From Acidobacteriota bacterium (GTDB taxonomy: Bacteria; Acidobacteriota; Blastocatellia; Pyrinomonadales; Pyrinomonadaceae): a stretch of DNA of 64,000 nucleotides. A program made the translations under genes and the position numbers. The stretch spans positions 94,797-158,796 of the forward strand of contig JBGTSR010000013.1 of NCBI GenBank assembly GCA_041940165.1, given 5' to 3'. Shown here in pieces: positions 8,535-55,613 of this stretch (the first letter of the stretch is position 1; each line of letters opens with the position of its first letter). The notes under the pieces were generated by a model that was given only the letters and a program-made list of their open reading frames with translations, ran no database searches and was not told the origin of the DNA.

Positions 8535-8607
8535 CGAAGATCGGCGATCAAGCATCATAATTTTTGTGCTAATCTTGACCTGCAATTTAGGTTGAGACCA
8601 GCACGTT

Positions 8608-11046
8608 ATGATTTACCGACGTTTTGCCTTCCTACTGGCTCTTGTTCTCTTCACCTCCTTCCTGACAGCTCGGGCTCAGGATCGCTGGACGCAGGTCAAG
8701 TCGCCCAACTTTTTCCTCATCGGGAATGCTTCAGACAAGGACATTCGAAAGACCGCGACGCGCCTCGAACAGTTTCGTGAAGCGTTCCGACTGCTCTTTC
8801 CGGGCGTCAACTTGACGGCATCGGTGCCGACGAACGTTGTCGTCTTTAAGAACGACGCCGCGTACAAGCCGTTCAAACCGAAGCGAGCCAACGGAAAGAT
8901 CGACGATGAGATCGCGGGATATTTCCAGCCCGGCGAAGACGTCAACTACATCACGCTCGCCGCCGATGACGATTCGCTCGGGGTCATTTTTCACGAATAC
9001 GTCCACTTCATTATCGACACCAATTTCGGCAAGACCGAGGTCCCGCAGTGGTTTAACGAGGGCCTCGCCGAGTATTACCAGACATTCGTCGTCATAGACG
9101 ACAAGAAGGTCAGGCTCGGGCTCCCGCAGGACGGGCATCTTGGGCTCCTGCAACGCGGACAGCTCATACCGCTCGATCAGATGCTCGCGGTCACCAACTA
9201 TCAGCTTCATCAATCGGGCGGGCATTCACGGAGCATCTATTACGCCCAGTCGTGGGCGATGGTCCATTACTTGATCGCAGGCGGGAGGACAGATTCGCTT
9301 GGAGCTTACCTTTCCGCCGTCGGCCGCGGGGTCGATCAGAAACGAGCCTTTGAAGAAGCGTTTCGCATGAGCTACTCCAAGATGGAGAGCGAGATCAAGA
9401 ACTACGTCTCGAAGGGTTCGTACCGCTACTTCGAGGCCGAGATGAAGCAGAAGATGGATTTTTCGGCGTCGATGCAGTCGTCGCCGCTGACTCCTGCGGA
9501 CACGAATGCATATCTCGGCGATCTGCTCTATCACAACAATCGATGGGATGACGCCGAGCCGTACCTTATTGATGCGATCAAAGCCCAGTCCGATCTGACG
9601 CTTGCCAACACGGCTCTCGGAATGGTCAAGCTTCGCCAGCGAAAGTACCCCGAAGCCCGGGAATACCTCGAGAAGGCAACTTCGAGCGGTGTTGCAAATG
9701 TGCGTGCTCATTATCAATACGCCTACCTGCTCAGCCTCGAAGGGCGTGATGAACTCGGCTTCGTCAATGGTTTTTCGACGGAAACGGCGAGTAAGATCCG
9801 CGCGGCTCTCGCCAAAGCGATCTCGCTCGATCCGGGATTTTCAGAGACGTACGATCTTTTTGCCCTCGTTGCCCTCGTCACCAACGAACATCTCGACCAG
9901 GCAGTTAACCATCTGAAAACTGCCATCAAGCAACAGCCTGGAAACCAGCGGTATTCGATCCGGCTCGCCGAAGTGTATGCCCGGCAGAAGAACTTCGACG
10001 CGGCAATTCCCATCGCCGAGAAGATCGCCCAAAACGGCGAGAACGACTCGATGAAGGCTCGTTCTTCAGGCCTTCTCAACCAGATCCGGAACCAGCAGGA
10101 ATTCGAGCGACAGCAGGCTGAGAACAAGAAGAGCTTCGAGGCCGCGATGGCAGCCTCAGGCGGCCAGCCGCGGCTCGTCAAACGGATCGAAGGCGTTCCG
10201 CGACCGTCTGACGAGGAACTCAAGAAGCTGCAGGAGGAAGAGCGTATCCGCTCGATGAATGAGGCCCTGCGAACGCCGCTCGAAGGCGAGACCCGCATAC
10301 TCGGCCGCATCGAAAAGGTCGACTGCAAGCCGAGGCCGCCCGTTCTAACGATCCGGACCGAGGCCGAGTCCATCGCGATCAGCACGAAGGATTTCGCCAG
10401 CCTCATACTTGTCTCGATCGATCCGGCCGCAACTGAGGCGTCTGTCGGCTGCAACGCCGATCTGAAGGCCTTGCAGGCGATGATCACCTACAAGCCAACA
10501 TCAGCACCGAAGCTCGGCATTCGCGGCGAACTTGTAGCGGTCGAGTTCGTGCCGAAAGACTTTCGCCTGATGACCGAAGCCGAAATGAAGGCCGAGTCAA
10601 AGCTAGTCGTCTGGGATCTCGAAGACCGCAAGATCGTTCGCGACGACAGCGGCCCGCCGCTTCCTTCGGCCGAAGAGATCGAGCGCCGACGCCGCGAGGC
10701 GTTCGTTGAAGGCATCAGGAACGCATTGCGTAAACCGGCCGCGGGAGAGAAGCAGTTCATGGGATTTCTCGACAAGCTGGAATGCACGGAACGTGTGTCG
10801 CTGATGCATTTCAGATCGGGTCAACGGATCGTCAAACTTGCGGTTTCGCCTACACCGCCACCGCAGCTCGTTATGTACGTCACGGACATGGCCGGCACCG
10901 AGATCAACTGCTCGATGAAGCCGATCGAGTATCCGGTCGTCGTGACCTTCGCCGACAAGCCGGATGCCAAACTCAAGTCCGATGGTACGGTCGTGGCGGT
11001 CGAGTTCGTACCGCAGATATTCACGCTCGCACCTAGTCAACAATAG
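8608..11046 (+). CDS. secreted MA-clan zinc metallopeptidase-like protein with TPR repeats and a duplicated C-terminal domain
   Basis: Signal peptide, HEYVH (HExxH) followed by NEGLAEY (gluzincin third ligand), a TPR-like helical region, and two ~89-aa C-terminal repeats ending in VAVEFVP. Confidence 0.75.
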   Translation: MIYRRFAFLLALVLFTSFLTARAQDRWTQVKSPNFFLIGNASDKDIRKTATRLEQFREAFRLLFPGVNLTASVPTNVVVFKNDAAYKPFKPKRANGKIDDEIAGYFQPGEDVNYITLAADDDSLGVIFHEYVHFIIDTNFGKTEVPQWFNEGLAEYYQTFVVIDDKKVRLGLPQDGHLGLLQRGQLIPLDQMLAVTNYQLHQSGGHSRSIYYAQSWAMVHYLIAGGRTDSLGAYLSAVGRGVDQKRAFEEAFRMSYSKMESEIKNYVSKGSYRYFEAEMKQKMDFSASMQSSPLTPADTNAYLGDLLYHNNRWDDAEPYLIDAIKAQSDLTLANTALGMVKLRQRKYPEAREYLEKATSSGVANVRAHYQYAYLLSLEGRDELGFVNGFSTETASKIRAALAKAISLDPGFSETYDLFALVALVTNEHLDQAVNHLKTAIKQQPGNQRYSIRLAEVYARQKNFDAAIPIAEKIAQNGENDSMKARSSGLLNQIRNQQEFERQQAENKKSFEAAMAASGGQPRLVKRIEGVPRPSDEELKKLQEEERIRSMNEALRTPLEGETRILGRIEKVDCKPRPPVLTIRTEAESIAISTKDFASLILVSIDPAATEASVGCNADLKALQAMITYKPTSAPKLGIRGELVAVEFVPKDFRLMTEAEMKAESKLVVWDLEDRKIVRDDSGPPLPSAEEIERRRREAFVEGIRNALRKPAAGEKQFMGFLDKLECTERVSLMHFRSGQRIVKLAVSPTPPPQLVMYVTDMAGTEINCSMKPIEYPVVVTFADKPDAKLKSDGTVVAVEFVPQIFTLAPSQQ

Positions 11047-18207: not shown

Positions 18208-19470
18208 TCAGTGCGTTGCGGGCGGGACTTCGTGCGGAAAGAATAAGACGTTGCTCGGCGATGAGAACTTCAACTGCTCCTTTCGCAGTTGTGCCAGGCT
18301 CAGCAACTGGCCGGGGGTTTCGCCGTCGGCGCCAAATGATGACCAACCGATATTTAGCGAGACTTCGACAGTCTGGCTTTCGTTGATGGCAAATCTTCGT
18401 GCAAAAAAGCCGGCGTTGATACGCGTAATGATCTCTTGCGTAACCGCGCGGTCGGCCGTCGGTAAGATCAAAAGAAATTCGTCGTTAAGGGCCCGAGCGA
18501 CAAGATCCATCTGTCTGACGTTCTCTTTCAGCAAAGAAGCGACGAACGCCACCAACCGGTCGCCTGCGGCGTGCCCGAATGTACAGCTCAGTTCTTCGAA
18601 GTTCTTTATGTCGATCGCGAGTACGCTCAGCGGCCGAGTTTCCTTGTTTCGCTGTGCCTCGGCAACCTGATTTTCGAGAATGAGGTAAAAGGCCCGTTCG
18701 TTCGGCAGATCGGTCGTGAGATCGGTAAGCGAATTTGCCTGAGAGCGCTCGAACGATATCGAGCCCAATATTAACGGCTCGATCCTGCTTCCGATCGAGG
18801 CAAAAAGCTCGTAAAACTCGGGCAAGACCGCCTCGGACGTCGCGAAATATAGCTGCAGGACGCCGAAAACGTTGTCGCCGCGCTTTAGCGGTATCGCCAC
18901 GGCCGAACCGAACTCATCCGAGTCGTCTAAGGCAAGATAGCTATCAACCTCGACCTGCCGCGTCGAAAAAGCCTGGCCGGCGAGACCTTCGTCTAGCTCG
19001 AGGCTTTGACCTTTGTGCCGCTCCGCGGAACTTCCGTCAGCGTGCGATGCAACGAGGCGGGTGCGAGTCTTATCGAGCAGAAAAAGGACGATCGAATTGC
19101 AGCGCGTAACGGCCTTAACGCGATCCGCAGTCAACCGGAAAGCATCCGCCGAACTCAGCGAACCTGTAAAATATTCGGCGACCTCGTCTAGCGAACTGAG
19201 ATCGTTACGCTCCAAGCCATCGGTAGCAAGCGCCGTCCCAACTCTTTCCCTTTGTCGCCGATGCAGCAAGAACAAGAGAGTACAAACGCAGATATACGCT
19301 GCGAAAACTGTGGCAAAGCCCACGCCTCGATCGACGATCTCGGGCTCCGAGATCCAAAGCACGTACAGGCCCGCGACGGCCAAAAGCGAGACCAGGAGAA
19401 GCGAGACCGGAAGGAATGAGAATAGGGAAACGCGAGCGGTACGCTCGCCTTCCGAGTGATGTTCGGACAT
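18208..19470 (-). CDS. membrane-anchored GAF domain protein with a degenerate GGDEF domain
   Basis: Two N-terminal TM helices, a GAF-like middle region, and a C-terminal GGDEF fold in which the active-site motif reads LNDEF while an RxxD (RQMD) I-site sits 5 residues upstream. Confidence 0.8.
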   Translation of the reverse strand: MSEHHSEGERTARVSLFSFLPVSLLLVSLLAVAGLYVLWISEPEIVDRGVGFATVFAAYICVCTLLFLLHRRQRERVGTALATDGLERNDLSSLDEVAEYFTGSLSSADAFRLTADRVKAVTRCNSIVLFLLDKTRTRLVASHADGSSAERHKGQSLELDEGLAGQAFSTRQVEVDSYLALDDSDEFGSAVAIPLKRGDNVFGVLQLYFATSEAVLPEFYELFASIGSRIEPLILGSISFERSQANSLTDLTTDLPNERAFYLILENQVAEAQRNKETRPLSVLAIDIKNFEELSCTFGHAAGDRLVAFVASLLKENVRQMDLVARALNDEFLLILPTADRAVTQEIITRINAGFFARRFAINESQTVEVSLNIGWSSFGADGETPGQLLSLAQLRKEQLKFSSPSNVLFFPHEVPPATH

Positions 19471-33790: not shown

Positions 33791-36700
33791 ATGCCGAAGC
33801 GACGCGTCCGAATCGTTCTGCCGCTACTTTCACGAACAGCCCTCGTGGCGATCCTGCTGGCCATCGCCGTCGTCGCGGTGTATTTATCGCCGTTACGAAC
33901 TCAGATAGTTGCTGCGTTCGCCCGAGAAGTCATAGGCCAAGAGGCTCGTGTCTTGCCGCATCAGGAGCCGACGCCGCCGCGATCGGAGAACGGTGAGGAT
34001 CGTCCCGAAGCGACGTTTACGGTTTCAAATACGAATGACTCCGGTCCGGGTTCGCTGCGGCAAGCGATACTGGATGCAAACGCCGCCGCCGGTGCCGATA
34101 CGATCAACATAACCACAACCGGAACGATCAACCTCGCCAGCGCCTTGCCGGACGTGACACAGTCCACAACCATAACGGGGCCGGGGTCGAATTCCCTGAC
34201 GATCCGGAGAAATACGGGCGGCGACTATCGTGTGCTCGGATTTTCCGGTGCTAACACCTCGTCCATTTCCGGCGTAACCATCTCTAACGGGAATGTAACG
34301 GGCGACGGCGGCGGTATTTTTAGCTCGCAAACGCTGACGATTACGAATTGTACGATCTCCGGAAACACCGCAACTGGTTTCGGCGGTGGGATCGAAAACG
34401 CGGGCACCTTGACCGTTGATCGAAGCACGATCTCGGGAAACACGTCTTTGATAAATCAATCTGGCGGCGGGATCGACAATCTTGGAACGCTGACGGTCCG
34501 CAGTTCAACGATCAGCGGGAATTCGGCCACCTCGGTAAACACCGGTGGAGGAATTTTTTCGTTTGGCGGGACGGTTTCGATCGTCAATTCGACGATCACG
34601 AACAATCAGTCGAACGCGACCGGCGGGGCGGGTGGCGTCAAGGCCGAGAATACCACCGTTACGATCAAAAACAGTATCGTCGCGGCCAATCAATCCAATA
34701 CGACGATACCGGACACGTCGACGGCGGGATCAGGATCGTTCGTGTCGAACGGCTTTAATCTGATCGGCAATCGCGGCGCCGTGACATTTGGCGGGACTTC
34801 GGACCAGAGCGGAACGTCGACACCATTAAATCCGCTCCTTAGTGCGCTCGGCAACAACGGTGATACGACGCAAACACACGCTCTGCTCGGCGGCAGTCCC
34901 GCTCTTGATAAGGGAAGCAACGCCGGTTCCGGCGTGGCGACGGATCAGACCGGCTTCACGAGAACGGTCGATCTCGGCATAGCAAACGCCTCAGGCGGCG
35001 ACGGGACAGATATCGGAGCGGTCGAGATGGCTTCGATACCGAACTGTACGCAGACGCCGGGCGCGATCAGCTTTGGCCAGACGATAAACGGCACTTTGGC
35101 TGCGGGCGATTGCCATTTTAACGTCGTCGCGCCGGCAACCGCAGGAAACTCGGGAGCTCTGTACGATGCCTACACCTTTAGCGGGACCGCAGGCCAGCAG
35201 GTCGCGATCGCGATGACCTCGCCGGCCGGGCCCGCGAACTTTGACACCGTATTGAGGCTATACCAGGGCAGTTTCCCGGGCGGCACCTTCGTAACGGAAA
35301 ATGACGATATCGATGGAGGCAATAACCGAAATTCCCGGATCCCCGTCAACGGCTTCTTCACCCTCCCGTCGACTGCTACCTACACGATCATCGCCAATGC
35401 TTTCTTTGTAGAGCCTACTGGGGCCGGAATCTATTCGCTTAATCTGACGCTCGGCGACTCGACCGCGCCGACGGCGAGCGGAACTGCTCCTAACGTTACG
35501 ACAGCGGGGGCTACGTTGCACACGGCGACGGTTGTTTACACGGACAATGTTGCGATCAATGCCAGCACGGTCGGGATCGGAGATATCAGGATCACCGGGC
35601 CGAACGGATTTGATGTGGCGACAGATTTTCAAAACGTAACGCCGGGCGGCAACGGAACACCGCGAACGGCAAATTACCCTTTCCCCGTACCCGGTGGTTG
35701 GACCTTTGCGAAAAACGGTACGTACAACATCGTCATGCAGACGAATCAGGTCGCGGACACATCGGGCAACTTCGTCGCGGCGGGGACGATCGGGACGTTT
35801 ACGGTAAATATCCCGGCGAGCCCGCAGACGTTCATCGTCACCAATCTAAACAACGACGGCCCGGGCAGCCTGCGTCAGGCGATCCTTGACGCCAACGCCA
35901 ACAGCCCCGCCGCCGATACGATCAATTTCCAGGCGGGATTGAACGGCACGATCTTGTTGACGACGGGGGAACTCGTGATCACCGATGGCGTGACGATCAA
36001 TGGTCCGGGAGCAAGTGTGGTTACAGTCTCGGGTGGAAACGCCAGCAGGATCTTTCGCACAGTCGGTGGTGTGACCGCAAGTATGAACGGCCTTACCTTA
36101 ACCGCCGGGAACGGTGTCGGCGGTTTCGTCAACAATGCGGGAAGCGCCATTTTGAATCAAGGAATATTGAACATATCAAATGCAGTTCTTACAGGTAACA
36201 ACGCACCCTCAAGTGCGGGAACGATCAACTCGCTGGGCACACTAACCTTGACCAATTCCACTATATCTAACAACAGCACCGCATTTGCCGGCGGAGCTAT
36301 TTTCAGCCTTGGCGGTAATATCACAATCGTCAGTTCTGCTGTCACGACCAATACAACAAACGGACTGAGCGGCGGATCTACAAGTGGAGGAATCGCCGTC
36401 CGAGGTGGCTCGCTGACTATTCGTAATTCAACTATCAGTGGAAACACGGCCCCTAACAACGATCAGAATGGTGGCGGTATTCGAGTGGATGATAATTCGA
36501 ACCTTACGATAATCAACAGTACCGTCACTAATAACTCAGCAGCCGGAGTAAGCAGCGCGAGCGGAATTAGTGTTGACGCGACATCGACCGCGACAATACG
36601 AAACACAATAGTCGCGGGAAATCAGAATAGCTCTACACAACCCGACGTGGTCGCCGCCGGTACTGTCACGTCCAATGGGTTCAATCTTATTGGCAATCGG

Positions 36701-39700
36701 GGAACGTTAACGTTCGGAAGCACGGGTGACCAGAGCGGCACCGGCGAATTGCCGCTCAATCCACTCCTCAGCCCGCTCGCAAACAACGGTGGTCCGACGC
36801 AGACTCATGCTCTGCTCGCGGGCAGTCCGGCGATCGATAAGGGAAGCAATTCCGGTTCTGGCGTGACGACGGATCAGCGTGGTTTAACGCGTCCGCGTGA
36901 TCTGGTTGCGATCTCTAATGCATCCGGTGGCGACGGTTCGGACATCGGTGCGTTCGAAGAGCAGAACGAACCTGCCGCCACCCCGCCGACCGCCGTCGGT
37001 ACATCGCCCAACGTTACAACGTCCGGAGTGACATTGCAGACGGTGACCGTGACTTACTCTGACGATGTCGCCGTCGACGTCAGCACCCTCGGTACCGGCG
37101 ATATAACGGTCACGGGCCCTGCACCAACCGCGACGCCGACTTTTGTCAGCTTCAACCCCGGCGGTAACGGAACACCGCGAACCGCGACTTACACCTTCAC
37201 ACCAGTTACCGGCAGGTGGCGGTCTGCTTTCAACGGTACCTATAACATCGTCATGCAGGCGAATCAAGTCGCCGACACGTCGGGCAGCTTTGTCGCGGCG
37301 GGGACGATCGGTTCGTTCACTGTCAACGTGCCTTCGGCGAGAATTGGTGACTTCCTCTGGAGCGATAATGACGCGGACGGCGTCCAAGATGCGGGTGAGC
37401 CCGGGATCGTAGGGGCGTTAATATTTATCGATTCGAACGGGAACGGCGTATTCGATACCGGCGAACCTCAGTCGCAATCCAATTCGCAAGGACTGTACGC
37501 TTTTTCCGACCTCGATCCGGGAAATTACTCCATCCGAGTTAGGACGGTTCCCGCCGGGTTTGTAGCAACGACGGCTGGTGTCCTTAACTTTGTAATTAGC
37601 ACACCGACGCAGATCGTCGACACCGCCGATTTTGGCTTCAGGCTCGTGGTTACCGACCTCTCGGATTCCAGTTCGGGCAGCCTCCGCCAAGCGATACTGA
37701 CCGCCAACGCAAACACTGCCACCGGCGCCGAAGTCATCAGTTTCCAGGCGGGATTGACGGGCACGATCACGCTGACGACCGGCGAAGTCGTGATCGACGG
37801 CAGCATGACCATCAACGGCCCGGGGGCAGGCGTAATAACGGTTTCGGGCAACAATGCAAGCCGCATTTTCCAATTCAACCTCGGTCATACGGTAAGCCTG
37901 GTTGGTTTAACACTGACAGGGGGAAATGGTACCGGCGGAGGCAACGTATCCGGCGGAGCGATCCGAAATAACGCAACCACGACGATATCGAGCGTCGTCA
38001 TTACCGGCAATTCCGCAGTCACAGGCGGTGGAATATCCAGCGGAGGTACGATGACCATTTCGAATAGTTTGATTGCCAATAACTCCGCTGATAACGGCGG
38101 CGGGCTTTTCAGTCAGGAAACTCTTACGATCACAAATTCGACAATCACGGGCAACACCGCCAACTTCCAGGGCGGCGCAATGAATTTACAGAGAAGCAGC
38201 GCGACGTTGATCAATTCGACGATCAGTGGAAATACCGCGAATAGCACGACTTTCCCGGGAGCGATACAGTTTTTTACGACGACCGGAACACGGACTTTGC
38301 AGGTGGTTAATTGCACTGTCGCGAACAACATGACTGGGACACCGAATACCGTTGGCGGAATTTTGGTTACCGGACAAGGAGCCGGCGTCTCCGCGACGGC
38401 CACACTCCGCAACTCGATCATCGCAAACAACGGCCCTATAAACTTGCTTACAACCAGCACAAGCGGAGGAACGGGAACGATAACGTCGCAGGGCTATAAT
38501 CTGGCCAGTGACAATGGAGCAGGTTTTCTTACCGGAACCGGCGATCAAATAAACACCAACCCACTCCTCGGCCCGCTCGCAGACAATGGCGGCCCTACGC
38601 AGACCCATGCTTTGCTCGCCGGCAGTCCGGCGATCGATAAGGGGAGCAATGCGGGTTCGGGAGTGAACACCGATCAACGTGGGTTTCTACGGCCACGCGA
38701 TCTGAATGCGATCTCCAACGCGGTCGAGGGCGACGGCTCTGACATCGGTGCATTCGAAGAGCAGAATGAACCCGCCCCGACGCCGACTCCAACACCAACG
38801 CCGACAGCGACACCAACGCCGACGGCAACACCGACGCCTACGGCCACGCCAACGCCAACGCCAACGGCTATACCAACACCATCGCCGACGCCGACAGCGA
38901 CACCAACACCTACGCCAACGCCGACCGCAACACTAACGCCAACACCAACACCTACGCCGCCACCGGCGAATATTGTAGTTACGAATACAAACGACAGCGG
39001 CCCGGGCAGTTTGCGGCAGGCGATTGTTGATGTTGCTGCGGGCGGGACAATTACGTTTTCATCGTTGTTCAGCGGGCCGGAACAGATAAACGAACCCGAC
39101 GCTCCGCAGACGATCACGCTGACGAGCGGCGAGTTGTTCATAGATAAATCGATGACGATAACCGGGCCGGGTGCAAATCTGTTGACTATTTCGGGTAACA
39201 ACGCGTCGCGGGTATTCAGGATAAACACCGTAACGGTGGCTTTGAGCGGTTTGACGATCACGGGCGGGAACGTCGTCGGCGGCAACGGCGGCGGCGGCAT
39301 CTTCAATTTCGGGAGTCTAACGCTGAGCAACGCGGTCGTTACCCAGAATCAAACAACCAACCGTGCCGGTGGCGGAATTAACCAGTTTGCCGCTGGCAAT
39401 CTAACGATCATCGACTCGACCATTTCAGGCAATACGGCTACAGATGATGGCGGCGGGATACTCTTTAACAATCCCGCAGGCAGTTTTACGGTGACGAATT
39501 CGACCATTAGCGGAAATACCGTGACTTCCAATGGTCAGGGCGGCGGTATTTGGGTCGCAGCCGGAGCCGCGAGTATTACAAATTCAACGATCACGAATAA
39601 TTCAGTTGCGGGATCTGTAAGCACGAGTGGACTCTATCGAAACGCAGGTGCTGTAACTCTTCGCAACAGTATCGTGGCCGGCAATCAGTCCAACTCGGCA

Positions 39701-40303
39701 AAGCCAGATGTGGGCGCCAACGGCGGAACGGGCGTCACCTCAAACGGCTACAACCTGATCGGCAATCCGGGCTCTCTCGCCGTCTTCAACCAGACAGGCG
39801 ACCAAACAGGCAACGGGCCCACACCGCGCGATCCACTCCTCGGCCCGTTGCAAAACAACGGCGGATCGACGCCGACCCACGCTTTGCAAGCCGGAAGTCC
39901 GGCGATCGACGGTGGCAATAGTTCTGGTTCGATCAACGATCAACGCGGCCTCGGATTCTTGCGTGTCGTCGATCTGCTGGCTCCTAACGCCGCTGGCGGT
40001 GACGGTGCGGACATTGGCGCGTTCGAACTGCAAACCGAGCCGCCGCCGGCGACTGCGTCGATCAACGGCCGCGTGCTCACCCCGACGGGCGCCGCGGTAA
40101 GAAATACGCGCGTCAACCTGATCGATCCGCAGGGATTCGTGCGGGTCGCGACTTCGAGCAGCTTTGGAGTGTTCAACTTTACAAATCTGCCGACCGGCCA
40201 GACGTATCTGATAACCGTGACATCGAAACGATTCCGCTTTTCGCCGCGAAACGTTGTGCTAAACGCTGATGTCACCGGGCTCGATCTGTTTGGGCTGGAA
40301 TAG
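33791..40303 (+). CDS. giant (2170 aa) surface/secreted beta-helix repeat protein
   Basis: GGGAGA RBS and an N-terminal TM/signal anchor. Four modules (about 34010-35030, 35822-36965, 37640-38765, 38969-40035) each start with [11 protein letters not shown](L/V)D and end with [19 protein letters not shown]...GDG.DIGAFE. The interior is made of NxTISGN-type beta-helix turns. Also present: a PPC-like domain, a duplicated Ig-like domain, an SdrD-B-like domain, a PT linker, and a CarboxypepD_reg-like C-terminus. Confidence 0.9.
38774..38968 (+). repeat. Pro-Thr(Ala) linker encoded by near-periodic ACN-CCN repeats inside the giant gene
   Basis: Translates to [63 protein letters not shown]. The DNA is a 6-nt quasi-repeat. 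Confidence 0.9.
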
Positions 40304-46021: not shown

Positions 46022-47011
46022 ATGAAGACGAAGGTTCTACTGTCATTGACGGCAGCGATCTTGCTTGGCGGTTTTGCATTTGGTGTATTTTACGGCCCGA
46101 CGGCACAGGTCGGTGCTCAGAGTACAAAAGACGACCCGGCTCCGGTCGATACGGTGAAAGATGACGAGCCATATACGTTCAATGGCTACACGTGGGCCAG
46201 CAAGAAAGAGTTCATGGACTACGGCAGATGTACGACCAAGATCTTGAGCGAGCCTGAGATGGACCAGATCGAGCGCGAGGTCGACATCGCCCGCGAAAAT
46301 CGCAAATCGGCAAATAGCGGTTTTGAAATGAACGCTACGGGTGGAACGATCCCGGTTTACATCCACGTAATTCGAAACAGTTCCGGCGGTGGCGACGTCT
46401 CGGACAGCCGTATCGCACAGCAGATGGCGGTGCTCAATAACGCGTTTGCAAGTACCGGATGGGGCTTCAGCCTTGTTGGCACGACACGCACAGACAATTC
46501 GACCTGGTACACATGTTCCGGCGGCTCCTGCGAATCGCAGATGAAGAACGCCCTGCGTCAAGGCACTGCAGACGATCTGAATATTTACCTGAACAACATG
46601 GGCGGCGGTCTGCTCGGTTGGGCGACGTTCCCGTCGAGTTACGCGGGTAATCCGAAGAACGACGGGGTCGTAGTTCTTTCAGCCTCGCTTCCGGGTGGAT
46701 CTGCGGCTCCGTACAACCTCGGCGACACGGCAACGCACGAGGTCGGTCACTGGATGGGCCTTTATCACACATTCCAGGGCGGCTGCGCACGCAATGCTAC
46801 GAGCGGCGGCGACCTGGTCTCGGATACACCGGCCGAAAAATCGCCTGCTTACGGATGCCCGACCGGCCGCGACAGCTGCCGCAACATCGCCGGCCTCGAC
46901 CCGATCACCAACTTCATGGACTACACCGACGACGCCTGCATGAATACCTTCTCGGCCGGCCAGGACGCCCGCATGGATTCCCTGTTCACGACCTATCGTT
47001 TCGGAAAATAA
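46022..47011 (+). CDS. secreted M43-family (pappalysin/ulilysin-like) zinc metallopeptidase
   Basis: Signal peptide and the metzincin motif [13 protein letters not shown] (HExxHxxGxxH). Confidence 0.85.
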
Positions 47012-48704: not shown

Positions 48705-49697
48705 CTACTTATCGGTCATCAGCGGCGTGGCGTAATAGCCTTCGCGGGAGCGGACCGAGAGCTTGGGCATGCCGCGGGGCGGATTTATCTTGACCTTGAG
48801 TTTGTGCCACTTGCCGTCGGGGTTGAAATCTTTCGGGACGTAGCCGATCGAGTATTGATGGCGGAGTTCGAGGGCGATGCGCTCGAAGATCTCGTCGAGG
48901 CTGCCGTCAGTGGCGAAATAGGCCTTGCCACCAGTGGATTCTGACAGCTGCTCGAGGAACGGATGGCCTTCGTATTCGCTGCCGTACACGCCGGCCGCAT
49001 AAATGATGACATCGGCCTCCTTCATATAGCGTCGCATTTCCTGGTAGCTATAGCGGGAATTGTTGTCCATGCCGTCGCTGATGATGATCACGGCCCTTTT
49101 CTTGTGGCTGCCGCGTGAGACGCGGTCCATCCCGAGGTAAACGGCGTCGTACAAAGCTGTGTTGCCGCCGGTCTTTACCATCGACAGGCTGTCCAGAACG
49201 ACTCTCGGATCACGCGTGCGGTCGGCCAGCAGCCGGACCTTGTCGTTAAATGCGATGACCGAGTACTCGTCCGACGGATGGCTGGTCGCTATGAAGCGTT
49301 CGAGCGCCCGTCGCGAACGGGAGATCTTCTCGCCGTTCATCGACCCAGAAACGTCGTACACGATCGCGACCGAAGCCGGAGCGTCCGTGTCCGAGAAAAA
49401 GACGATGTCCTGCTGGATGTTGTCTTCGAAGACCTGAAAGTGCTTCTTTGAGAGATTCGAAACGTAGCGGCCCCACTTGTCGTGAACCGTCAGCGTCAGC
49501 GTGACCAGATCCGTCTGGACCTTGAGCGGGCCATCATCGTCCGGGTCGACGATAACCGGCGGTGTCGGGGTCGGATTTGCGGTCGCGGGCACCGAATTCT
49601 GAGATGCTGCCAGTCCGGTAAGAAAGGCAGCACCTACTAACAAGCATGCTAGTGCCAAACACAAACTGCGTGATATCGATGGGATACTCTTTGTCAT
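48705..49697 (-). CDS. secreted von Willebrand factor A (VWA) domain protein
   Basis: Signal peptide/TM, a VWA fold with the MIDAS-like DVSGSM motif, and an overall layout like the VWFA-related proteins common in Acidobacteria (from recollection). Confidence 0.85.
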   Translation of the reverse strand: MTKSIPSISRSLCLALACLLVGAAFLTGLAASQNSVPATANPTPTPPVIVDPDDDGPLKVQTDLVTLTLTVHDKWGRYVSNLSKKHFQVFEDNIQQDIVFFSDTDAPASVAIVYDVSGSMNGEKISRSRRALERFIATSHPSDEYSVIAFNDKVRLLADRTRDPRVVLDSLSMVKTGGNTALYDAVYLGMDRVSRGSHKKRAVIIISDGMDNNSRYSYQEMRRYMKEADVIIYAAGVYGSEYEGHPFLEQLSESTGGKAYFATDGSLDEIFERIALELRHQYSIGYVPKDFNPDGKWHKLKVKINPPRGMPKLSVRSREGYYATPLMTDK

Positions 49698-49725
49698 CTT
49701 GTTTCAAATTCGCCGGCGCGTCGTG

Positions 49726-51081
49726 TCAAATATCGTCGAGAACGACCAAAGCGGTCTCGTTGCCCCCGGACGAAATATTCACTAGCGAACCGCTGCCGAG
49801 GCGAACCATTCCGCCTTCGACGCGTCCGTTGAAAAGAAATGGATCGAAATCGACGTTCAACGCCTCCATGAAAGCCTCGGAATCGTCGAAGACCGGCATG
49901 TCGACCTTATCTACACGGACCCGTTCCTGCACGACAAACTCCTCAGCCAGGGCACGTTGGATAGCGTCGTCCCATTGCGACTCATCACTTTCCCAGCCAA
50001 AGGAGATCCCATGCCCGCCATAGTCGTCATTGGGCTTCAGGACGAAACGCTGTTTTTCTGATCGAATATGGTCGAGCAGATCGACATCCTGACCTTGGTA
50101 TTTGGTTCGGCATTCGCCTACTGTTCGGGTCCACGGAACGTGCGCGTCTATTACCTCACGCTGTTCCCGCGTGAAAAGCTTCTCGTATCTTTCGTCAGTA
50201 AGTAACGCAAAACTAGCCTTCTTGTGCGGCAGCTTCGAACGAAACGAGTTGATCATGCAGACGGAGCTATCTGCAAGCGCCCGATACAGTGCGTGCTGCT
50301 CGTCGAATCGGTCAAGAAACTCATGGATAAGTACCCGCTTATAAAAGACATCGATCTCGAATTCGCCCGAACTGAGCACGCCATTCTTGTACACAAGATC
50401 GTTCGGATCGCATATTGTTGTCTTATAACCGTGGTCCTCAAAGTGCTCGGCGAGGAGGACGAATTCCGCCTGAGTATCGACGCCGACCCAGTCGACGATC
50501 GCGATATTTGGTGAGGTCTTTTGCCCGCCGAACTGTCTGTAGGCCGTCTCGAGCGACTCGATAAGCCTTACTCGAGGAGCCGGAAAATGGTGCGGATGGG
50601 CCTCGAGAAACCGGAGTACGGCCGGTATACGAAAAAACAACTCGCGAAGAGGCCTCTGATCGCCGATCCCTGCGGGATTCTCGCCGTTGTACTCGAGAAA
50701 GGCAAAACCATCGGCGTGAAGAAATGTGTCGAGGCGGCTGTTGACCGCGACGTCTTTGTAACCGGGTTCGAGCCGCGCCCACCTTGCCTCTTTCTCGGAA
50801 ACGCCGAGTTCCTCGAGCAGCTCGTCATTTGCGAGAGCTGCATGAGTCATCGACTGAAATGCTTCGAAAAGGTGCCGTGCAGCCCGCCGGATCTCGAGAT
50901 ATCGTGATCCCGGCAAGAAATACGGACGTAGAAACGGACAGATCGGCCGGTCACCGTGAAGTATTCCGCCGGCTCGCTGCAGTGCGGTGAGCTCCTCAAA
51001 AAGAGCCGTATCGAACCGATGTTCGTGAAGTAACTGCCGGTCGAGGTCGAGAGTCAATTTTTCTACGCTTACTGCCATCAC
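49726..51081 (-). CDS. ATP-grasp-superfamily-like protein (glutathionylspermidine-synthase / circularly permuted ATP-grasp-like)
   Basis: FLEYNGENPAGIG and FVLKPNDDYGGHGI segments resemble these families. The assignment is from memory of the family patterns only. Confidence 0.5.
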   Translation of the reverse strand: MMAVSVEKLTLDLDRQLLHEHRFDTALFEELTALQRAGGILHGDRPICPFLRPYFLPGSRYLEIRRAARHLFEAFQSMTHAALANDELLEELGVSEKEARWARLEPGYKDVAVNSRLDTFLHADGFAFLEYNGENPAGIGDQRPLRELFFRIPAVLRFLEAHPHHFPAPRVRLIESLETAYRQFGGQKTSPNIAIVDWVGVDTQAEFVLLAEHFEDHGYKTTICDPNDLVYKNGVLSSGEFEIDVFYKRVLIHEFLDRFDEQHALYRALADSSVCMINSFRSKLPHKKASFALLTDERYEKLFTREQREVIDAHVPWTRTVGECRTKYQGQDVDLLDHIRSEKQRFVLKPNDDYGGHGISFGWESDESQWDDAIQRALAEEFVVQERVRVDKVDMPVFDDSEAFMEALNVDFDPFLFNGRVEGGMVRLGSGSLVNISSGGNETALVVLDDI

Positions 51082-51333: not shown

Positions 51334-52554
51334 ATGTCTGTAATGCGACGAGTCTATCTCGACAACAGTGCTACCACGCCGATCGCTCCTGAGGTCGTCG
51401 AGGCGATGATGCCTTATCTGACCGAGCAGTTCGGCAATCCGTCGAGCATTCATTACTTTGGTCAGCAGGCACGTGCAGCGGTCGACAAAGCGCGTCATCA
51501 GGTCGCAGCTCTGATCAACGCACGGCCGAACGAGGTGGTTTTCACTTCCGGCGGCACCGAGTCGAACAACCTCGCCATCCGCGGACTCTGCGAAGCGAAT
51601 AACAAACACGGCCGGCACATCATCACGACCGCGATCGAACATTCCGCGGTCAAGAACGTTTGCGAAGACCTCGAAAAGCAGGATTACTGGGTGACTTACC
51701 TGCCGGTCGACGCCGACGGACTCGTTAAAGTCGAGGACGTCGAGGCCGCGATCACCGCGGAAACGATCCTGATCTCCGTAATGACCGCAAACAACGAGAT
51801 CGGTACTATCCAGCCAGTCGAAGAGATCGGTCGCATGGTCCACGGTTTGCGTGAAAAGGGCCGCAAGATCTGGTTTCACACGGACGCCGTTCAGGCCGTC
51901 GGAAAGATGTCAGTCGATGTCGAAGAGTTCGGCTGCGATCTGCTTTCGATCTCCGCCCACAAGATCTACGCTCCGAAAGGGATTGGTGCTCTGTACATGC
52001 GGCGCGGAGTGCGACTGCATCCGCAGAATATCGGCGGTCACCAGGAACGCGAACGCCGCGGCGGCACCGAATCCGTCGCCAATATCGTCGCATTCGGCCG
52101 TGCGTGCGAACTCGCTCAGAGCGAATTGAGTGTCTCAGCCGACTACCTTCGCTCGCTTCGTGACGACCTCGAAAGCCGGATTGGAGAGTCAGTTCCGGAC
52201 GTGATCTTCAACGGCCACCGCGAACGGCGCCTGCCAAATATCTCGAACATCTCGTTCCGACGTGTCGAGGGCGAAGCTCTGCTTATAAATCTCGATATGC
52301 AGGGCATCGCCGTTTCTACCGGGTCGGCATGCTCCTCAGGCACGCTCGAACCGTCGCCCGTCATCCGAGCACTGTCAGAGCCTGCGTCAGCGGGCGGGCA
52401 TTTTGGAGGGGCTCAGGAAGCGATCGACCGCGAAGACCGTGCCCGCGGTGCAATGCGGTTCAGCTTCGGCCGGCTCAACACCGCCGAAGACATCGACCGA
52501 GTCATTGCCGCGGTTCCCGCCGCGGTCGAGAATCTTAGATCTCTGTCCAGATAA
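51334..52554 (+). CDS. cysteine desulfurase (NifS/IscS family)
   Basis: VYLDNSATTP N-terminus, PLP-lysine SAHKIYAPKG, and the active-site loop GSACSSG. Confidence 0.9.
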   Translation: MSVMRRVYLDNSATTPIAPEVVEAMMPYLTEQFGNPSSIHYFGQQARAAVDKARHQVAALINARPNEVVFTSGGTESNNLAIRGLCEANNKHGRHIITTAIEHSAVKNVCEDLEKQDYWVTYLPVDADGLVKVEDVEAAITAETILISVMTANNEIGTIQPVEEIGRMVHGLREKGRKIWFHTDAVQAVGKMSVDVEEFGCDLLSISAHKIYAPKGIGALYMRRGVRLHPQNIGGHQERERRGGTESVANIVAFGRACELAQSELSVSADYLRSLRDDLESRIGESVPDVIFNGHRERRLPNISNISFRRVEGEALLINLDMQGIAVSTGSACSSGTLEPSPVIRALSEPASAGGHFGGAQEAIDREDRARGAMRFSFGRLNTAEDIDRVIAAVPAAVENLRSLSR

Positions 52555-52600
52555 AAAGAAGCGGCCCGCCGGTTGCCCGACGAAGCCGCTCGTTCCCCCC
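52555..52600 (-). terminator. weak hairpin terminator downstream of the GIIIGD-repeat gene
   Basis: On the minus strand, a 6-8 bp stem (AGCGGC / GCCGCT) with a large loop is followed by TTCTTTTTAT. This is marginal. Confidence 0.35.
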
Positions 52601-52622
52601 GGTGTGGAAACTTGATGGCGAG

Positions 52623-52922
52623 TTAGTCGCCGATGATGATGCCGGCACGGTCACCGATGATGATGCCTTCGCGGTCGCCGATGATGATGCCTTCTTTGTC
52701 GAGGCAGGTCTCTTTCGAGTCACCGATGATGATGCCTTCAAGAACGTCAACAAACCTGTCGAAAAGGCCCGTGGCACGATCGCCGATGATGATCCCGTGA
52801 GTTTCTTTTTCCGTGCAAGGCTTTTCGGCACGGTCGCCGATGATAATGCCTTCTGCGTTTGCGAACGTCGTTCCCATCATGAGCACTGCGGCTAGGGTCA
52901 ACGCTTTGACTGTGTTTTTCAT
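52623..52922 (-). CDS. small secreted protein with six GIIIGD repeats (99 aa precursor)
   Basis: GGAGAA RBS 7 nt before ATG 52922 and signal peptide MKNTVKALTLAAVLMMGTTFANA. The mature part contains (E/H/A)GIIIGD six times, encoded by GGCATCATCATCGGCGAC-type units with C-ending codons that match the host bias. Confidence 0.65.
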   Translation of the reverse strand: MKNTVKALTLAAVLMMGTTFANAEGIIIGDRAEKPCTEKETHGIIIGDRATGLFDRFVDVLEGIIIGDSKETCLDKEGIIIGDREGIIIGDRAGIIIGD

Positions 52923-53351
52923 TTTTCTCTTCTCCTGGTCGGTTAAGTTTTTTGGTTTCAAGGAATCCATCGTTTCCTTCCTGCCCTTATATAGACAAGG
53001 CTCGTGCCAAAACGTGCCATTCTATCGAAAGAGTTCGTAACTGTTGGAAATGTGCAAGTTACAGCCTCATTTTTGCGGTTCGACGACGTTTCTGAAAACC
53101 GAGATAAAGTGGATACTCACGTAACACGAATTTCCCGAACTTCGCCTAAGTCGTTCATTTCCTATCAGTTCCACAATTGGGTACTTTCTAACCACTTTTG
53201 CCGTGTATAATTGGTATACACCAGTTCTTTTAACCGCTCATTTTTTCTAGCTTTTTTTGATTAAACTGTGTTAAAATTTTTTTGTCTTTGATGGACCTGA
53301 GACCATCAGAGTGCATTCACCCGAGCCCGTTCAGCTCAGAACTCCCGTTCT

Positions 53352-55613
53352 ATGAACAGAGAGATCCTTTCCAACACTGTCAAAGGGATCGTTGTCCTCA
53401 TCGCCGCGATCTGCCTCGGCGTAGCTCTGGCCGAACTACCGGGCACCTCATTTACGTGGGGCTTTCTGGTCGTTATCGGTTTTGGTGCTTTGATCGCTCC
53501 GAGGATGAGCCTAACGCTTCCGCGATCCCGATTCGCGATCAGCTTTTCTGACGCGGCGGTTTTCCTTGCCTTCCTGATGTACGGAGGGCCGGCAGCGATC
53601 ATCGTTGCGGTGGTCGAGTCGGCCTCGAATTGTCTCTATCTGAGATCCCGAGGCTTTTACTTTGGCAAGTGGATGATCCCGACGAATGTCTCGATCAACA
53701 CCGTCGCAGTCGCAGCGACATGGGGGCTCTGGACACTCGCCTCCCCGCTGGTCACCGCACCGGTGAACTCGACACAACATATCGTTGCGACGGTGAGCAT
53801 GCTCGCCGTAGCACAGTTTTTCGTTTCTTCGATCATCGTTGCGATCATTGCGTGGGCCCGCAAAGGCACGAATCCATGGCAAACGTGGAAACACGATTGC
53901 TTCACGAGCTCGATGACGCAGATCGTCGGTGCGGGGCTTGCAGGGCTTGCGTTCAAACTTGTCAGCTACGCTGATTACGTCACCGGACTCATAGCGTTTA
54001 CCGCTCTGGTGATCGCCTATCTTAGCTATCGTCAATCCATCAACGAGGTAAACGATGCGATCCTGACAGCCGAATCCGCAGAGCGTGAAAAGGCCGAGGT
54101 CGAACGCGAGAAGGCCGAGGTCGAACGCGAACGCCGTCTTGAGGTAGAACGTCACGCCGGTCAGCTTGCTTCGAGCCTCGAAAAAGAGGAGAAAGCCAAC
54201 GAGGCCCTTCGAAAGAGCGAAAAAGACCTTCAGCACGCGGCTCTTCACGACCCGCTGACAAACCTGCCAAATCGAAAGCATTTCCACGACCGTTTGCGTT
54301 CCATGATCGACGCCTACAAGGCTGATCCGCGCAACACCTTCTACGTTCTGTTCCTTGACCTTCGTAAATTCAAGAACATCAACGATAGCCTCGGCCACGC
54401 GCTCGGCGACAAAGTTCTGATGATCGCGGCCAAGCGTTTCGTCCGCATGCTCAACGCGACGGACATGGTCGCCCGCATCGGCGGAGACGAATTCGCGGTC
54501 ATTCTCGGCGGCATCTCAAATATCGGTAAGGCGCAGAAGGTCGCACGGAGACTGCTCGACAATATCGCTCATCCGTTCTCGCTCAGCGGCAATAATGTCT
54601 CGATCAGTGTAAATATCGGTATTGCTCCTTGCGACACCGAGTATGAAAAGCCTGAAGAAGTGCTCCGCGACGCCGATATCGCGATGCATTATGCGAAGGA
54701 ATGGAACAGCGGCGTTGCCGTATTTACGAAAGAACTTCGCGAGCGGTTTCTCGAACGCGTCCGTTACGAGAACGACCTTCGCCATGCCCTCAACCGCAAG
54801 GAATTTTCGATGAGCTATCAACCGCTTATCGACATTCAGGACGGCTCGCTGATGGGATTTGAGGCATTGCTTCGTTGGCACCATAGTGAGTTCGGTAATA
54901 TTCCGCCTAACAAGTTCATTCCGATCGCGGAGGAATCCGGTCTGATCGTTCCGATAACGGTCTGGATACTCGAAGAGACCACGCGACAGCTTGCTTCGTG
55001 GCAAAAGATCAGTGCCGAATACCGCGACCTGATCGTCAGCGTCAATATTTCCGGAAAACACCTCTCGAACGACGATCTGATCGCCGACGTCGAGAATGCC
55101 TTGGCGATCTCAAAGATCGACCCATCGGCCCTGAAACTTGAGATCACGGAGAGCACGGCGATGGAAGACGCCGAGCATACGATCGATATGCTCAACCGTC
55201 TGAAGCTGCTCGGCATTCAGCTCAGCATCGACGATTTTGGTACCGGGTATTCGAGCCTCAGCTATCTGCACAGACTGCCGTTCGACACGCTCAAGATCGA
55301 TCGCTCATTCGTTTATAGCGTAGGCGAGAACGGCGAAGACTCCGAGATCCTGCAGACGATCATTTCCCTCGCCAAGAACCTTAAGAAGAAGGTAATTGCG
55401 GAAGGCATCGAGACCGAATCTCAGCTCAAACTGCTCCAGAATCTGGGTTGCGATTATGGCCAGGGGTACCTGCTCGCCCGGCCCGCGACGAAGGAAGCAA
55501 CAGAACGCTCGCTCTATGAGCGGAAGAAATGGCTTCCGGAAAACGAACTCATCGAGAACGAGAACCTCTCGGACGAAAAGATCCCCGAAAACCAAGAACT
55601 TCCCGTTTTTTGA
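53352..55613 (+). CDS. membrane sensor with GGDEF and EAL domains (c-di-GMP synthase/phosphodiesterase)
   Basis: About 6-7 N-terminal TM helices, a coiled coil, an intact RIGGDEF, an EAL domain with FEALLRW and DDFGTGYSSLSYL, and the ExE/KID motifs. Confidence 0.9.
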   Translation: MNREILSNTVKGIVVLIAAICLGVALAELPGTSFTWGFLVVIGFGALIAPRMSLTLPRSRFAISFSDAAVFLAFLMYGGPAAIIVAVVESASNCLYLRSRGFYFGKWMIPTNVSINTVAVAATWGLWTLASPLVTAPVNSTQHIVATVSMLAVAQFFVSSIIVAIIAWARKGTNPWQTWKHDCFTSSMTQIVGAGLAGLAFKLVSYADYVTGLIAFTALVIAYLSYRQSINEVNDAILTAESAEREKAEVEREKAEVERERRLEVERHAGQLASSLEKEEKANEALRKSEKDLQHAALHDPLTNLPNRKHFHDRLRSMIDAYKADPRNTFYVLFLDLRKFKNINDSLGHALGDKVLMIAAKRFVRMLNATDMVARIGGDEFAVILGGISNIGKAQKVARRLLDNIAHPFSLSGNNVSISVNIGIAPCDTEYEKPEEVLRDADIAMHYAKEWNSGVAVFTKELRERFLERVRYENDLRHALNRKEFSMSYQPLIDIQDGSLMGFEALLRWHHSEFGNIPPNKFIPIAEESGLIVPITVWILEETTRQLASWQKISAEYRDLIVSVNISGKHLSNDDLIADVENALAISKIDPSALKLEITESTAMEDAEHTIDMLNRLKLLGIQLSIDDFGTGYSSLSYLHRLPFDTLKIDRSFVYSVGENGEDSEILQTIISLAKNLKKKVIAEGIETESQLKLLQNLGCDYGQGYLLARPATKEATERSLYERKKWLPENELIENENLSDEKIPENQELPVF

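Follow-up and report, generated by a model that had tools for sequence, protein, structure and literature searches.

What does a bacterium make when nearly half of a small, apparently exported protein consists of copies of a single hexapeptide, and is the working unit the hexapeptide or the intact chain? The question is raised by a gene on the reverse strand of a 64,000-nucleotide stretch of contig JBGTSR010000013.1, from an acidobacterium of the family Pyrinomonadaceae (the whole stretch is referred to here as the window). The gene, at positions 52623 to 52922, encodes six identical GIIIGD modules. As judged from database searches, it is the first example of a family that has not been described before and that occurs only within a single group of soil Acidobacteria. 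The product is tentatively read as a multi-copy hydrophobic peptide precursor, in which the hexapeptide module rather than a folded domain would be the working unit; this is preferred over each of its rivals, although it falls short of an even chance.

The open reading frame extends from an ATG at 52922-52920 to a TAA at 52625-52623 (included in the coordinates above) and specifies a pre-protein of 99 amino acids, MKNTVKALTLAAVLMMGTTFANA-EGIIIGDRAEKPCTEKETHGIIIGDRATGLFDRFVDVLEGIIIGDSKETCLDKEGIIIGDREGIIIGDRAGIIIGD-stop, an assignment based on translation and on homologues. Its N-terminal part, MKNTVKALTLAAVLMMGTTFANA (52854-52922), reads by eye as a Sec-type signal peptide, with a basic n-region, a hydrophobic core, and an A-N-A motif after which cleavage is predicted. 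The preliminary description of this DNA had proposed such a peptide; its features agree and are conserved family-wide, and the product looks exported by the Sec route. The mature part would comprise 76 amino acids (8.1 kDa; pI 4.5), 24% of them Ile, with the modules occupying 47% of its length. Module 1 (residues 25-30; 52833-52850) starts one residue past the predicted signal peptidase site and is followed by a hydrophilic linker (AEKPCTEKETH) with Cys36 in its middle (52815-52817), module 2 (residues 43-48; 52779-52796), a central linker of hydrophobic and charged residues, RATGLFDRFVDVLE (52737-52778), in place of which relatives have further or degenerate modules, module 3 (residues 63-68; 52719-52736), and a second hydrophilic linker (SKETCLDKE) carrying Cys73 (52704-52706). 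Modules 4, 5, and 6 (residues 78-83, 86-91, and 94-99) form a C-terminal tandem array, GIIIGD-RE-GIIIGD-RA-GIIIGD (52626-52691), whose last module is the end of the protein; Tandem Repeats Finder reports this array as a 24-bp repeat at 52626-52694. The next residue is Arg for copies 1, 2, 4, and 5 and Ser for copy 3, and copy 6 runs directly into the stop codon. The translation is identical to that given earlier, including the six exact copies, the two Cys residues, and the Arg after four of the six copies.

The ribosome binding site AGGAGA, read from the sequence at 52936-52931, lies 8 nt before the ATG, as good a site as had been claimed. Beyond the stop codon, a GC-rich hairpin with a T-run (~52550-52591, reverse strand; z-score, -2.7) resembles an intrinsic terminator and is shared with the convergent Aminotran_5 (nifS-like) gene at 51334-52554. 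A hairpin in this position fits a monocistronic gene convergent with Aminotran_5, and a gap of 429 bp separates it from the divergent GGDEF-EAL gene that starts at 53352, which is the arrangement originally described. A 115-amino-acid version with a start at 52970 was rejected as an artefact: homologues start MK(N/K)T, and the upstream sequence is conserved as DNA and not in frame. The plus-strand “ADDDA” frame (52602-52895), already judged spurious, is a mirror artefact.

Relatives of the gene are numerous. Twenty were recovered with the single sequence as query. A profile run against 1.84 billion cluster representatives yielded 371 proteins (50% identity) at E ≤ 1e-3, of which 115 reached E ≤ 1e-10, and a second profile yielded at least 519 clusters at 90% identity; a narrow pattern search of the GTDB species representatives gave three loci. 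All matches that carry an organism name belong to Pyrinomonadaceae, “Chloracidobacterium sp.,” Acidobacteriota metagenome-assembled genomes, or acidobacterial soil bins, and all are annotated as hypothetical. Each locus has a single copy, and no paralogue occurs elsewhere in the 64-kb window.

These relatives bear directly on the possibility that the frame arose by chance, or as the coding shadow of a DNA repeat, and has no protein product. In more than 500 clusters, the reading frame is kept along with its signal peptide, its Cys pair, and the place of its stop codon, and the ratio of nonsynonymous to synonymous substitution (dN/dS) between orthologue pairs is 0.11-0.40. Synonymous differences are also found among identical modules, as in the window gene (GGC/GGG, ATT/ATC, GGC/GGT, and GAC/GAT) and in orthologues (ATT, ATA, and ATC in locus L004; Ser as AGC versus TCG in L006). 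Since identical modules are written with different codons, copy identity is kept at the peptide level. The ribosome binding site, promoter, and terminator are likewise conserved. The comparative data refute a chance frame, whose probability is now next to nil, and the gene is real. The preliminary description had held that a lack of homologues or of repeat conservation would suggest such a frame; homologues exist in more than 500 clusters and keep the repeat principle.

The family follows a strict design, described here from counts over 233 members. The module has the form G-[IL]-[ILM]-[IV]-x-x, with GIIVAG, GIIIGD, GILVSD, GIIVGD, GIIVTD, GIIVSD, and GIIVFG as common variants and GTMVSD and GIIYGG as rarer ones, and is present in three to eight copies per protein; proteins P0005 and P0006 are one inserted unit apart. 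The C terminus falls exactly at a module end in 223 members. The first module directly follows A-N-A in 120, and many others, including the window protein, have one Asp or Glu between. Modules are mostly preceded by Asp, Glu, Thr, or Ala, and a spacer of two residues is commonest. The residue after a module is Arg in 397 cases, the C terminus in 223, and Lys in 97, with Leu, Ala, Phe, Ser, and Ile also frequent. The basic residue noted earlier after modules of the window protein is therefore common in the family but not universal, as Leu, Ala, Phe, or Ile follows many copies.

Exactly two Cys residues are present in 223 of the 233 proteins, each near the middle of a hydrophilic, low-complexity linker rich in Pro, Thr, Ser, Lys, and Asp, at a median of six residues from the flanking module on either side (range, 2 to 23). 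Four members are free of Cys, and the joint loss of both residues in these points to a disulfide pair. Pro often precedes Cys (57 and 92 of ~220 members). The layout of one module, a Cys linker, two to four modules, a second Cys linker, and one or two modules is kept in ~220 of the 233. A single module type is used by 75 proteins and two or more types by 158, and no fixed positional rule for module types was found among the 233 members.

Copies within a protein change in concert. P0003 (four GIIIGD and one GILVSD) and P0023 (four GIIVAD and one GILVSD) have identical signal peptides, and the four copies differ at the same two residues. Similarly, locus L014 encodes six GIIVAG copies, and its close relative L017 encodes six GIITAG copies and one GIIVAG. 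This Val-to-Thr exchange takes two nucleotide substitutions per copy; the Thr codons of L017 are all ACA, and the adjacent Gly, Ile, and Ala codons vary among copies. Two-nucleotide changes amid differing synonymous sites imply that either selection or very short conversion tracts make the copies match. In addition, the signal peptide is at least as conserved as the mature part: identity averages 0.57 in the former and 0.50 in the latter, and the signal peptide has the higher value in 69 of 105 pairs. This is the reverse of the usual situation in secreted proteins, in which the signal peptide is the less conserved part. The combination of a conserved leader and a variable product recalls, by analogy, precursor genes.

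The control region is conserved as well and contains two elements that were absent from the preliminary description. The first, TGGCACGAGCCTTGT (52995-53009, reverse strand), lies 87 nt upstream of the ATG and is sigma-54 like: its -24 element (TGGCAC) and its -12 element (TTGT) have the canonical spacing. It is the sole such match in 64 kb (0.10 expected), and each of the 15 distinct loci examined has TGGCAC-N5-TTG(T/A) at a distance of 71-92 nt from the start codon, usually in the form TTTGGCACG-N4-TTGTAATAGAGAG(G/T)GCAG. The -12 position is always T or A where the sigma-54 consensus (TGGCAC-N5-TTGCW) has C. Because this C is replaced, we infer, and do not take as given, that the small gene is under sigma-54-type control. 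The second element is a perfect palindrome, TGTATA-N5-TATACA (53204-53220), ~200 bp upstream of the promoter. It has one match versus none expected, is conserved in 11 of 14 loci, and is accompanied by related GTATCC and GTATAC half-sites. Its arrangement is typical of an activator-binding site, and it is a candidate site for an enhancer-binding protein; no Sigma54_activat gene was seen among the neighbors scanned.

A promoter scan found no sigma-70-like promoter, and TTGGCA was rejected as a -35 element because its spacing (9-13 nt) is wrong. Positions 52300-53600, compared with Rfam under permissive settings, yielded sub-threshold noise only and no cyclic di-GMP (c-di-GMP) or other riboswitch. 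In most loci, the -24 element is preceded at 10-12 bp by one or two extra GGCAC(G) copies (53010-53020 in the window), making three GGCAC copies in all in L001 and L010; they could represent overlapping promoters or a direct-repeat binding site. Several homologues are mis-called with N-terminal extensions (e.g., ...GTLWHDGCN... or ...ARCGTVIEIE...), since the conserved TGGCAC-N5-TTG element has been read as coding. Near the GGDEF-EAL start, most loci have a further conserved repeat or palindrome motif, GTTTAACACGTT(T/A)AAC, degenerate in the window at ~53290-53310 (TTTTAACACAGTTTAAT). In L014 it does not travel with the small gene and thus is probably part of the sensor-gene promoter.

Searches for a known fold or family were empty, in line with the earlier statement that no characterized family has this repeat. 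The window protein has no Pfam-A or NCBIfam match above cut-off (the best Pfam matches are Flavi_NS4B at E = 0.046 and Hexapep_2 at E = 4.6), 30 diverse members match no Pfam family and give only stray NCBIfam matches, and a profile search of the PDB gave no match at E ≤ 1. A full-text literature search found GIIIGD in no paper, other module variants only in two unrelated papers, and no relevant paper on sigma-54 in Pyrinomonadaceae or on the amyloid or multicore angle. From 21 sequences, AlphaFold2 reached a mean predicted local distance difference test score of 38.5; from 112, the mature part scored 41-50 and showed no consistent secondary structure. A left-handed beta-helix of the Hexapep type was rejected: Hexapep_2 scores 7.5 bits against a cut-off of 27, and modules are spaced by 8, 7, 15, 18, or 20 residues, not by multiples of 6. 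Membership in curli or Fap systems finds no Pfam match and no CsgG/E/F- or FapF-like neighbors in the loci examined. No ChpA-C Pfam match to chaplins was obtained for the 30 members; the traits shared with chaplins (small, exported, hydrophobic, two Cys) are an analogy only.

If the protein is a multi-copy precursor, the gene would be transcribed on demand from the sigma-54-type promoter, with an activator bound at the upstream palindrome. The product would cross the inner membrane, where signal peptidase would make the N terminus of the first module. The two Cys residues would form one disulfide, closing a loop around the inner modules and keeping a very hydrophobic chain soluble. An exported endopeptidase would then cut between modules, most simply before the Arg or Lys that follows most copies, and would release several short acidic-hydrophobic peptides, (E)GIIIGD here and variants in relatives, with ends like the protein's own C terminus. 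Such a peptide may act as a diffusible, lineage-specific ligand, as short hydrophobic peptide pheromones do.

Several properties argue for this scheme. The two ends of the mature protein coincide with module boundaries, modules are frequently followed by Arg or Lys, copy number is free, copies are concerted, and a conserved leader is joined to a variable product. The linkers have a disordered look, structure prediction yields no fold, and a fiber would have no encoded system for export across the outer membrane. The gene is monocistronic, single copy, and tightly regulated. A candidate processing protease is the exported M43/pappalysin-type metallopeptidase encoded at 46022-47011 on the plus strand, which has a signal peptide and an 11-residue motif and is also present in L001 (17615-18604) and L005 (7445-8413). 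The M43/pappalysin family cuts before Lys or Arg (PMC6949598), and a cut between GIIIGD and Arg would give every copy the same C terminus as the natural end of the protein. Furthermore, the streptococcal pheromones EGIIVIVVG and DIIIIVGG, which have similar chemistry, act as signals (PMC3679016); this likeness is a resemblance only.

Other observations weigh against release of the modules. The M43 gene lies within 10 kb in only 3 of ~10 loci with enough flanking sequence and not in L003, L014, L015, L017, or L018. The near-invariant mid-linker Cys pair and the fixed layout (~220/233) would be needless for a simple string of cores, many inner copies lack a basic flank and are followed by Leu, Ala, Phe, or Ile (e.g., GIIVAG-LT-GIIVAG), and 158 of the 233 proteins contain two or more module types. 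A dedicated protease or transporter had been named as something to look for in homologous loci; no protease, transporter, or receptor is consistently adjacent in those examined, and the GGDEF-EAL sensor does not covary with module type. Multi-copy linear peptide signals are, to our knowledge, not known in diderm bacteria. The neighboring S9 prolyl oligopeptidase is unsupported as a processing enzyme, as Pro before Cys is neither universal nor at module borders. A polytopic membrane receptor might recognize the peptide; were this receptor the GGDEF-EAL protein, quorum sensing by peptide would feed straight into c-di-GMP turnover in a diderm phylum. This extension is quite doubtful.

The precursor originally proposed thus remains the leading reading, but not in the form of a ribosomally synthesized and post-translationally modified peptide (RiPP). 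A multi-core RiPP precursor, which had been suggested, is ruled out by a Sec signal peptide ending in A-N-A in place of a cytoplasmic leader, and no co-conserved genes for tailoring or maturation enzymes or proteases adjoin the gene. The radical SAM gene of the region was discounted for such a role, as it travels with the MGDG-synthase gene as general synteny. A VWA-domain gene and a weak circularly permuted ATP-grasp match (49726-51081; E = 1.3e-4) lie between the Aminotran_5 gene and the radical SAM block of the window (48705-51081, reverse strand); no ATP-grasp gene was seen beside the small gene or at that position in other loci, and L015 has a VWA gene near its small gene.

Precursor and beta-strand self-assembly are the two leading explanations, and the computations made here do not separate them. 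The latter, somewhat unlikely in itself and ranking close behind the precursor, holds that the product is an intact, disulfide-stapled mini-protein of very short all-hydrophobic beta-strands that assembles with itself into fibrils or films, or covers a hydrophobic surface, much as chaplins, hydrophobins, or functional amyloids do. Modules would be strands, the Cys linkers would be loops on one side of a meander, and Asp, Glu, Arg, and Lys would be aggregation gatekeepers; with both sheet faces hydrophobic, self-association would follow. Several observations favor this scheme. The Cys pair is near invariant (223/233) and was lost as a pair in the four Cys-free members, the proteins adhere to a fixed arrangement of three segments in which ~6 residues separate each Cys from the module on either side, a basic flank is missing from many inner copies, and most proteins mix two or more module types. 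Beta-branched Ile/Val runs stand between Gly and charged residues, tandem 8-residue units are compatible with strand-turn-strand, and a four-stranded meander with two Cys loops on the same side joined by a disulfide is geometrically consistent. The absence of a monomer fold in AlphaFold is also expected of an assembly-dependent structure. Two larger proteins that matched the family profile, P0082 (660 amino acids) and P0092 (576 amino acids), contain about ten repeats of ~18 residues, QNDGIIIGDS(I/V)TL, with paired Cys (TCxVTC). They are probably unrelated to the family and share the DGIIIGD string by convergence, but their use of DGIIIGDS in structural repeats shows that the motif can be a beta-strand element. 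Strand pairing was, however, not confidently predicted even with 112 sequences, linker lengths vary widely, module types follow no fixed positional pattern, and an isosteric Val-to-Thr swap need not sweep all copies if strands merely pack. No match to chaplin, curlin, or hydrophobin models was obtained, and no CsgG/FapF-type outer-membrane export machinery or nucleator gene occurs in any locus examined. Of the beta-strand repeat fiber first proposed, the intact beta-repeat therefore survives as the second reading, but an extracellular fiber has no encoded outer-membrane route.

The remaining explanations place the protein in the periplasm or in competition. As a periplasmic multivalent ligand or regulator, an unlikely role, the protein would dock its strands by beta-strand addition onto partners such as the GGDEF-EAL protein (as YfiR does with YfiN), TonB-like proteins, or chaperone or protease domains. 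Identical modules make a multivalent design, the protein appears exported without an evident outer-membrane route, and the (D/E)-G-I-I-V-(S/T) pattern presumably resembles TonB-box strands. The gene lies beside GGDEF-EAL in 12 of 14 loci, including L015, in which the other flank has been replaced, and a PilZ-domain gene is inserted alongside in L003. Nevertheless, the region is syntenic by descent within one family, with the Aminotran_5, radical SAM, and MGDG-synthase genes equally conserved; the pair has been split by inserted genes in L014 and L018, where the control region stays with the small gene; and the sensor has neither a sizeable periplasmic domain nor a known sensor fold. Its divergence ratios, given below, also carry no signal of co-evolution, in a test of low power. 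A secreted antimicrobial or toxic peptide of the defensin or conotoxin kind is a very unlikely alternative. In its favor, the signal peptide and the Cys framework are conserved, the residues between the Cys change fast, and the product is hydrophobic and possibly membrane active; against this, the monocistronic gene has no immunity or export gene nearby, it occurs as one orthologous copy at a constant place in the chromosome and not as a mobile or variable locus, and the mature protein is acidic (pI 4.5).

The neighborhood itself is largely inherited. The recurrent order is S9 prolyl oligopeptidase, GGDEF-EAL, the small gene, Aminotran_5 (nifS-like), radical SAM, and MGDG-synthase, and since this order recurs across the family, much of the linkage is shared descent. 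The divergent neighbor (53352-55613, plus strand), syntenic in most loci, encodes a polytopic-membrane GGDEF-EAL protein with an intact RIGGDEF motif, an EAL domain, and a membrane domain of ~230 residues that matches no Pfam family. The small gene adjoins it in 12 of the 14 loci that are informative on this point. Insertions gather on the nifS side, a hot spot that holds a PilZ-domain gene in L003, five genes in L001, and a different gene set in L015. The inserted L003 gene (10647-11525), in the closest named relative, encodes a 292-amino-acid protein with a weak PilZ match and lies between the small gene and the Aminotran_5 gene. Directly downstream of the small gene and on the same strand, three divergent loci have a small open reading frame, absent from the window, for a cytoplasmic-looking product of 58-87 amino acids with an AEWEK(Q/E)(E/Q)IPL motif (L012, 961-1224; L015, 10538-10714; L018, 10357-10608).

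The GGDEF-EAL side is more stable but has been broken twice. In L014 (8661-9620 and 781-3013), an IS1595 transposase gene and ~6 kb are inserted, and the annotated frame of the displaced sensor orthologue, 70% identical, lacks the first 84 residues. The gene that separates the small gene from GGDEF-EAL in L018 encodes a beta-gamma-crystallin (8310-9440). The promoter stays with the small gene in both loci; the exact palindrome is kept in L014, and only TGTATAC and GTATCC half-sites are kept in L018. The sensor's membrane domain evolves two to three times faster than its catalytic part. Pairs that share a module type have a membrane/catalytic divergence ratio of 2.51 (n = 10), and those that differ in type have one of 2.29 (n = 18). 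Equal ratios in this low-power comparison give no sign of ligand-receptor co-evolution and leave the GGDEF-EAL protein unsupported as a co-evolving receptor. A link to c-di-GMP or biofilm control had been thought conceivable and is still unsupported: the pair is separated in two loci, the sensor shows no extra divergence with module type, and the only hint besides the GGDEF-EAL neighbor is the PilZ-domain gene of L003. The window also encodes a GAF-GGDEF protein (18208-19470, reverse strand), a second c-di-GMP enzyme, and a 2,170-amino-acid open reading frame (33791-40303, plus strand) whose product combines right-handed beta-helix, SdrD_B, and CarboxypepD_reg domains and is probably a very large protein of the surface or adhesin type.

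In soil, Acidobacteria rank among the commonest bacteria, and their communication and surface building are almost uncharted. The family is large (>500 clusters), lineage specific, and wholly unannotated, and its design is unusually legible. If the modules are released, they would constitute a multi-copy linear peptide signal in a Gram-negative-type phylum; we know of hardly any documented peptide signaling in bacteria of this type. If the protein acts intact, it would be a minimal natural model for gate-kept, disulfide-stapled beta-aggregation modules. In either case, the TGGCAC-N5-TTG(T/A) element may provide a handle on the form of sigma-54 promoters in Acidobacteriota.

The closest parallels in known systems are partial. 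Like the SHP/Rgg and Phr/Rap systems of Firmicutes, the family has a small exported precursor whose putative active peptide is at the extreme C terminus (a module end in 223/233). The peptides are short, Ile/Val rich, and contain an acidic residue (EGIIVIVVG and DIIIIVGG versus (E)GIIIGD [PMC3679016]), they diversify fast between lineages, and the gene is divergent from a regulator-type gene. There is, however, no sequence homology, the host belongs to another phylum and has an outer membrane, and each precursor has many copies and a Cys pair where SHP and Phr precursors have one copy. No TPR (RRNPP) regulator adjoins the gene in 15 loci, so that the RRNPP-type cytoplasmic receptor of those systems has no adjacent counterpart, the Opp permease is not consistently nearby, and cleavage is a proposal here. 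Yeast alpha-factor (MFalpha1) and neuropeptide pro-hormones share a signal peptide, tandem identical peptides with short basic-containing spacers, a last copy that ends at the stop codon, and variable copy number. They are eukaryotic and are processed by Kex2 or pro-hormone convertases at dibasic sites, whereas a single Arg or Lys follows about half of the nonterminal copies here; the acidobacterial proteins also lack a pro-region, and long Cys-bearing linkers break the array. Multi-core RiPPs (cyanobactins and graspetides, e.g., plesiocin) likewise carry several identical or near-identical short cores per product, but have a cytoplasmic leader and adjacent tailoring enzymes or proteases, in contrast to the Sec signal and lack of conserved tailoring genes here.

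Among proteins that act intact, Streptomyces chaplins are also small, Sec exported, strongly hydrophobic, and beta prone, with one conserved Cys pair, and repeats supply the strands of curli CsgA and of FapC. The family differs from both groups in matching none of their models, in modules of just six residues that are exact copies, and in lacking genes for a nucleator or for outer-membrane secretion. Structure prediction normally succeeds with CsgA-type repeats but yields no beta-solenoid here. YfiR-YfiN offers the precedent of a small exported Cys-containing protein encoded beside a membrane GGDEF protein; there is no similarity to YfiR, the genes are divergent and not in an operon, the sensor has no periplasmic domain, and the pairing is broken in two loci. 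By analogy, the family would stand between multi-copy or C-terminal peptide precursors, such as alpha-factor, Phr, and SHP, and small Cys-paired hydrophobic assembly proteins, such as chaplins.

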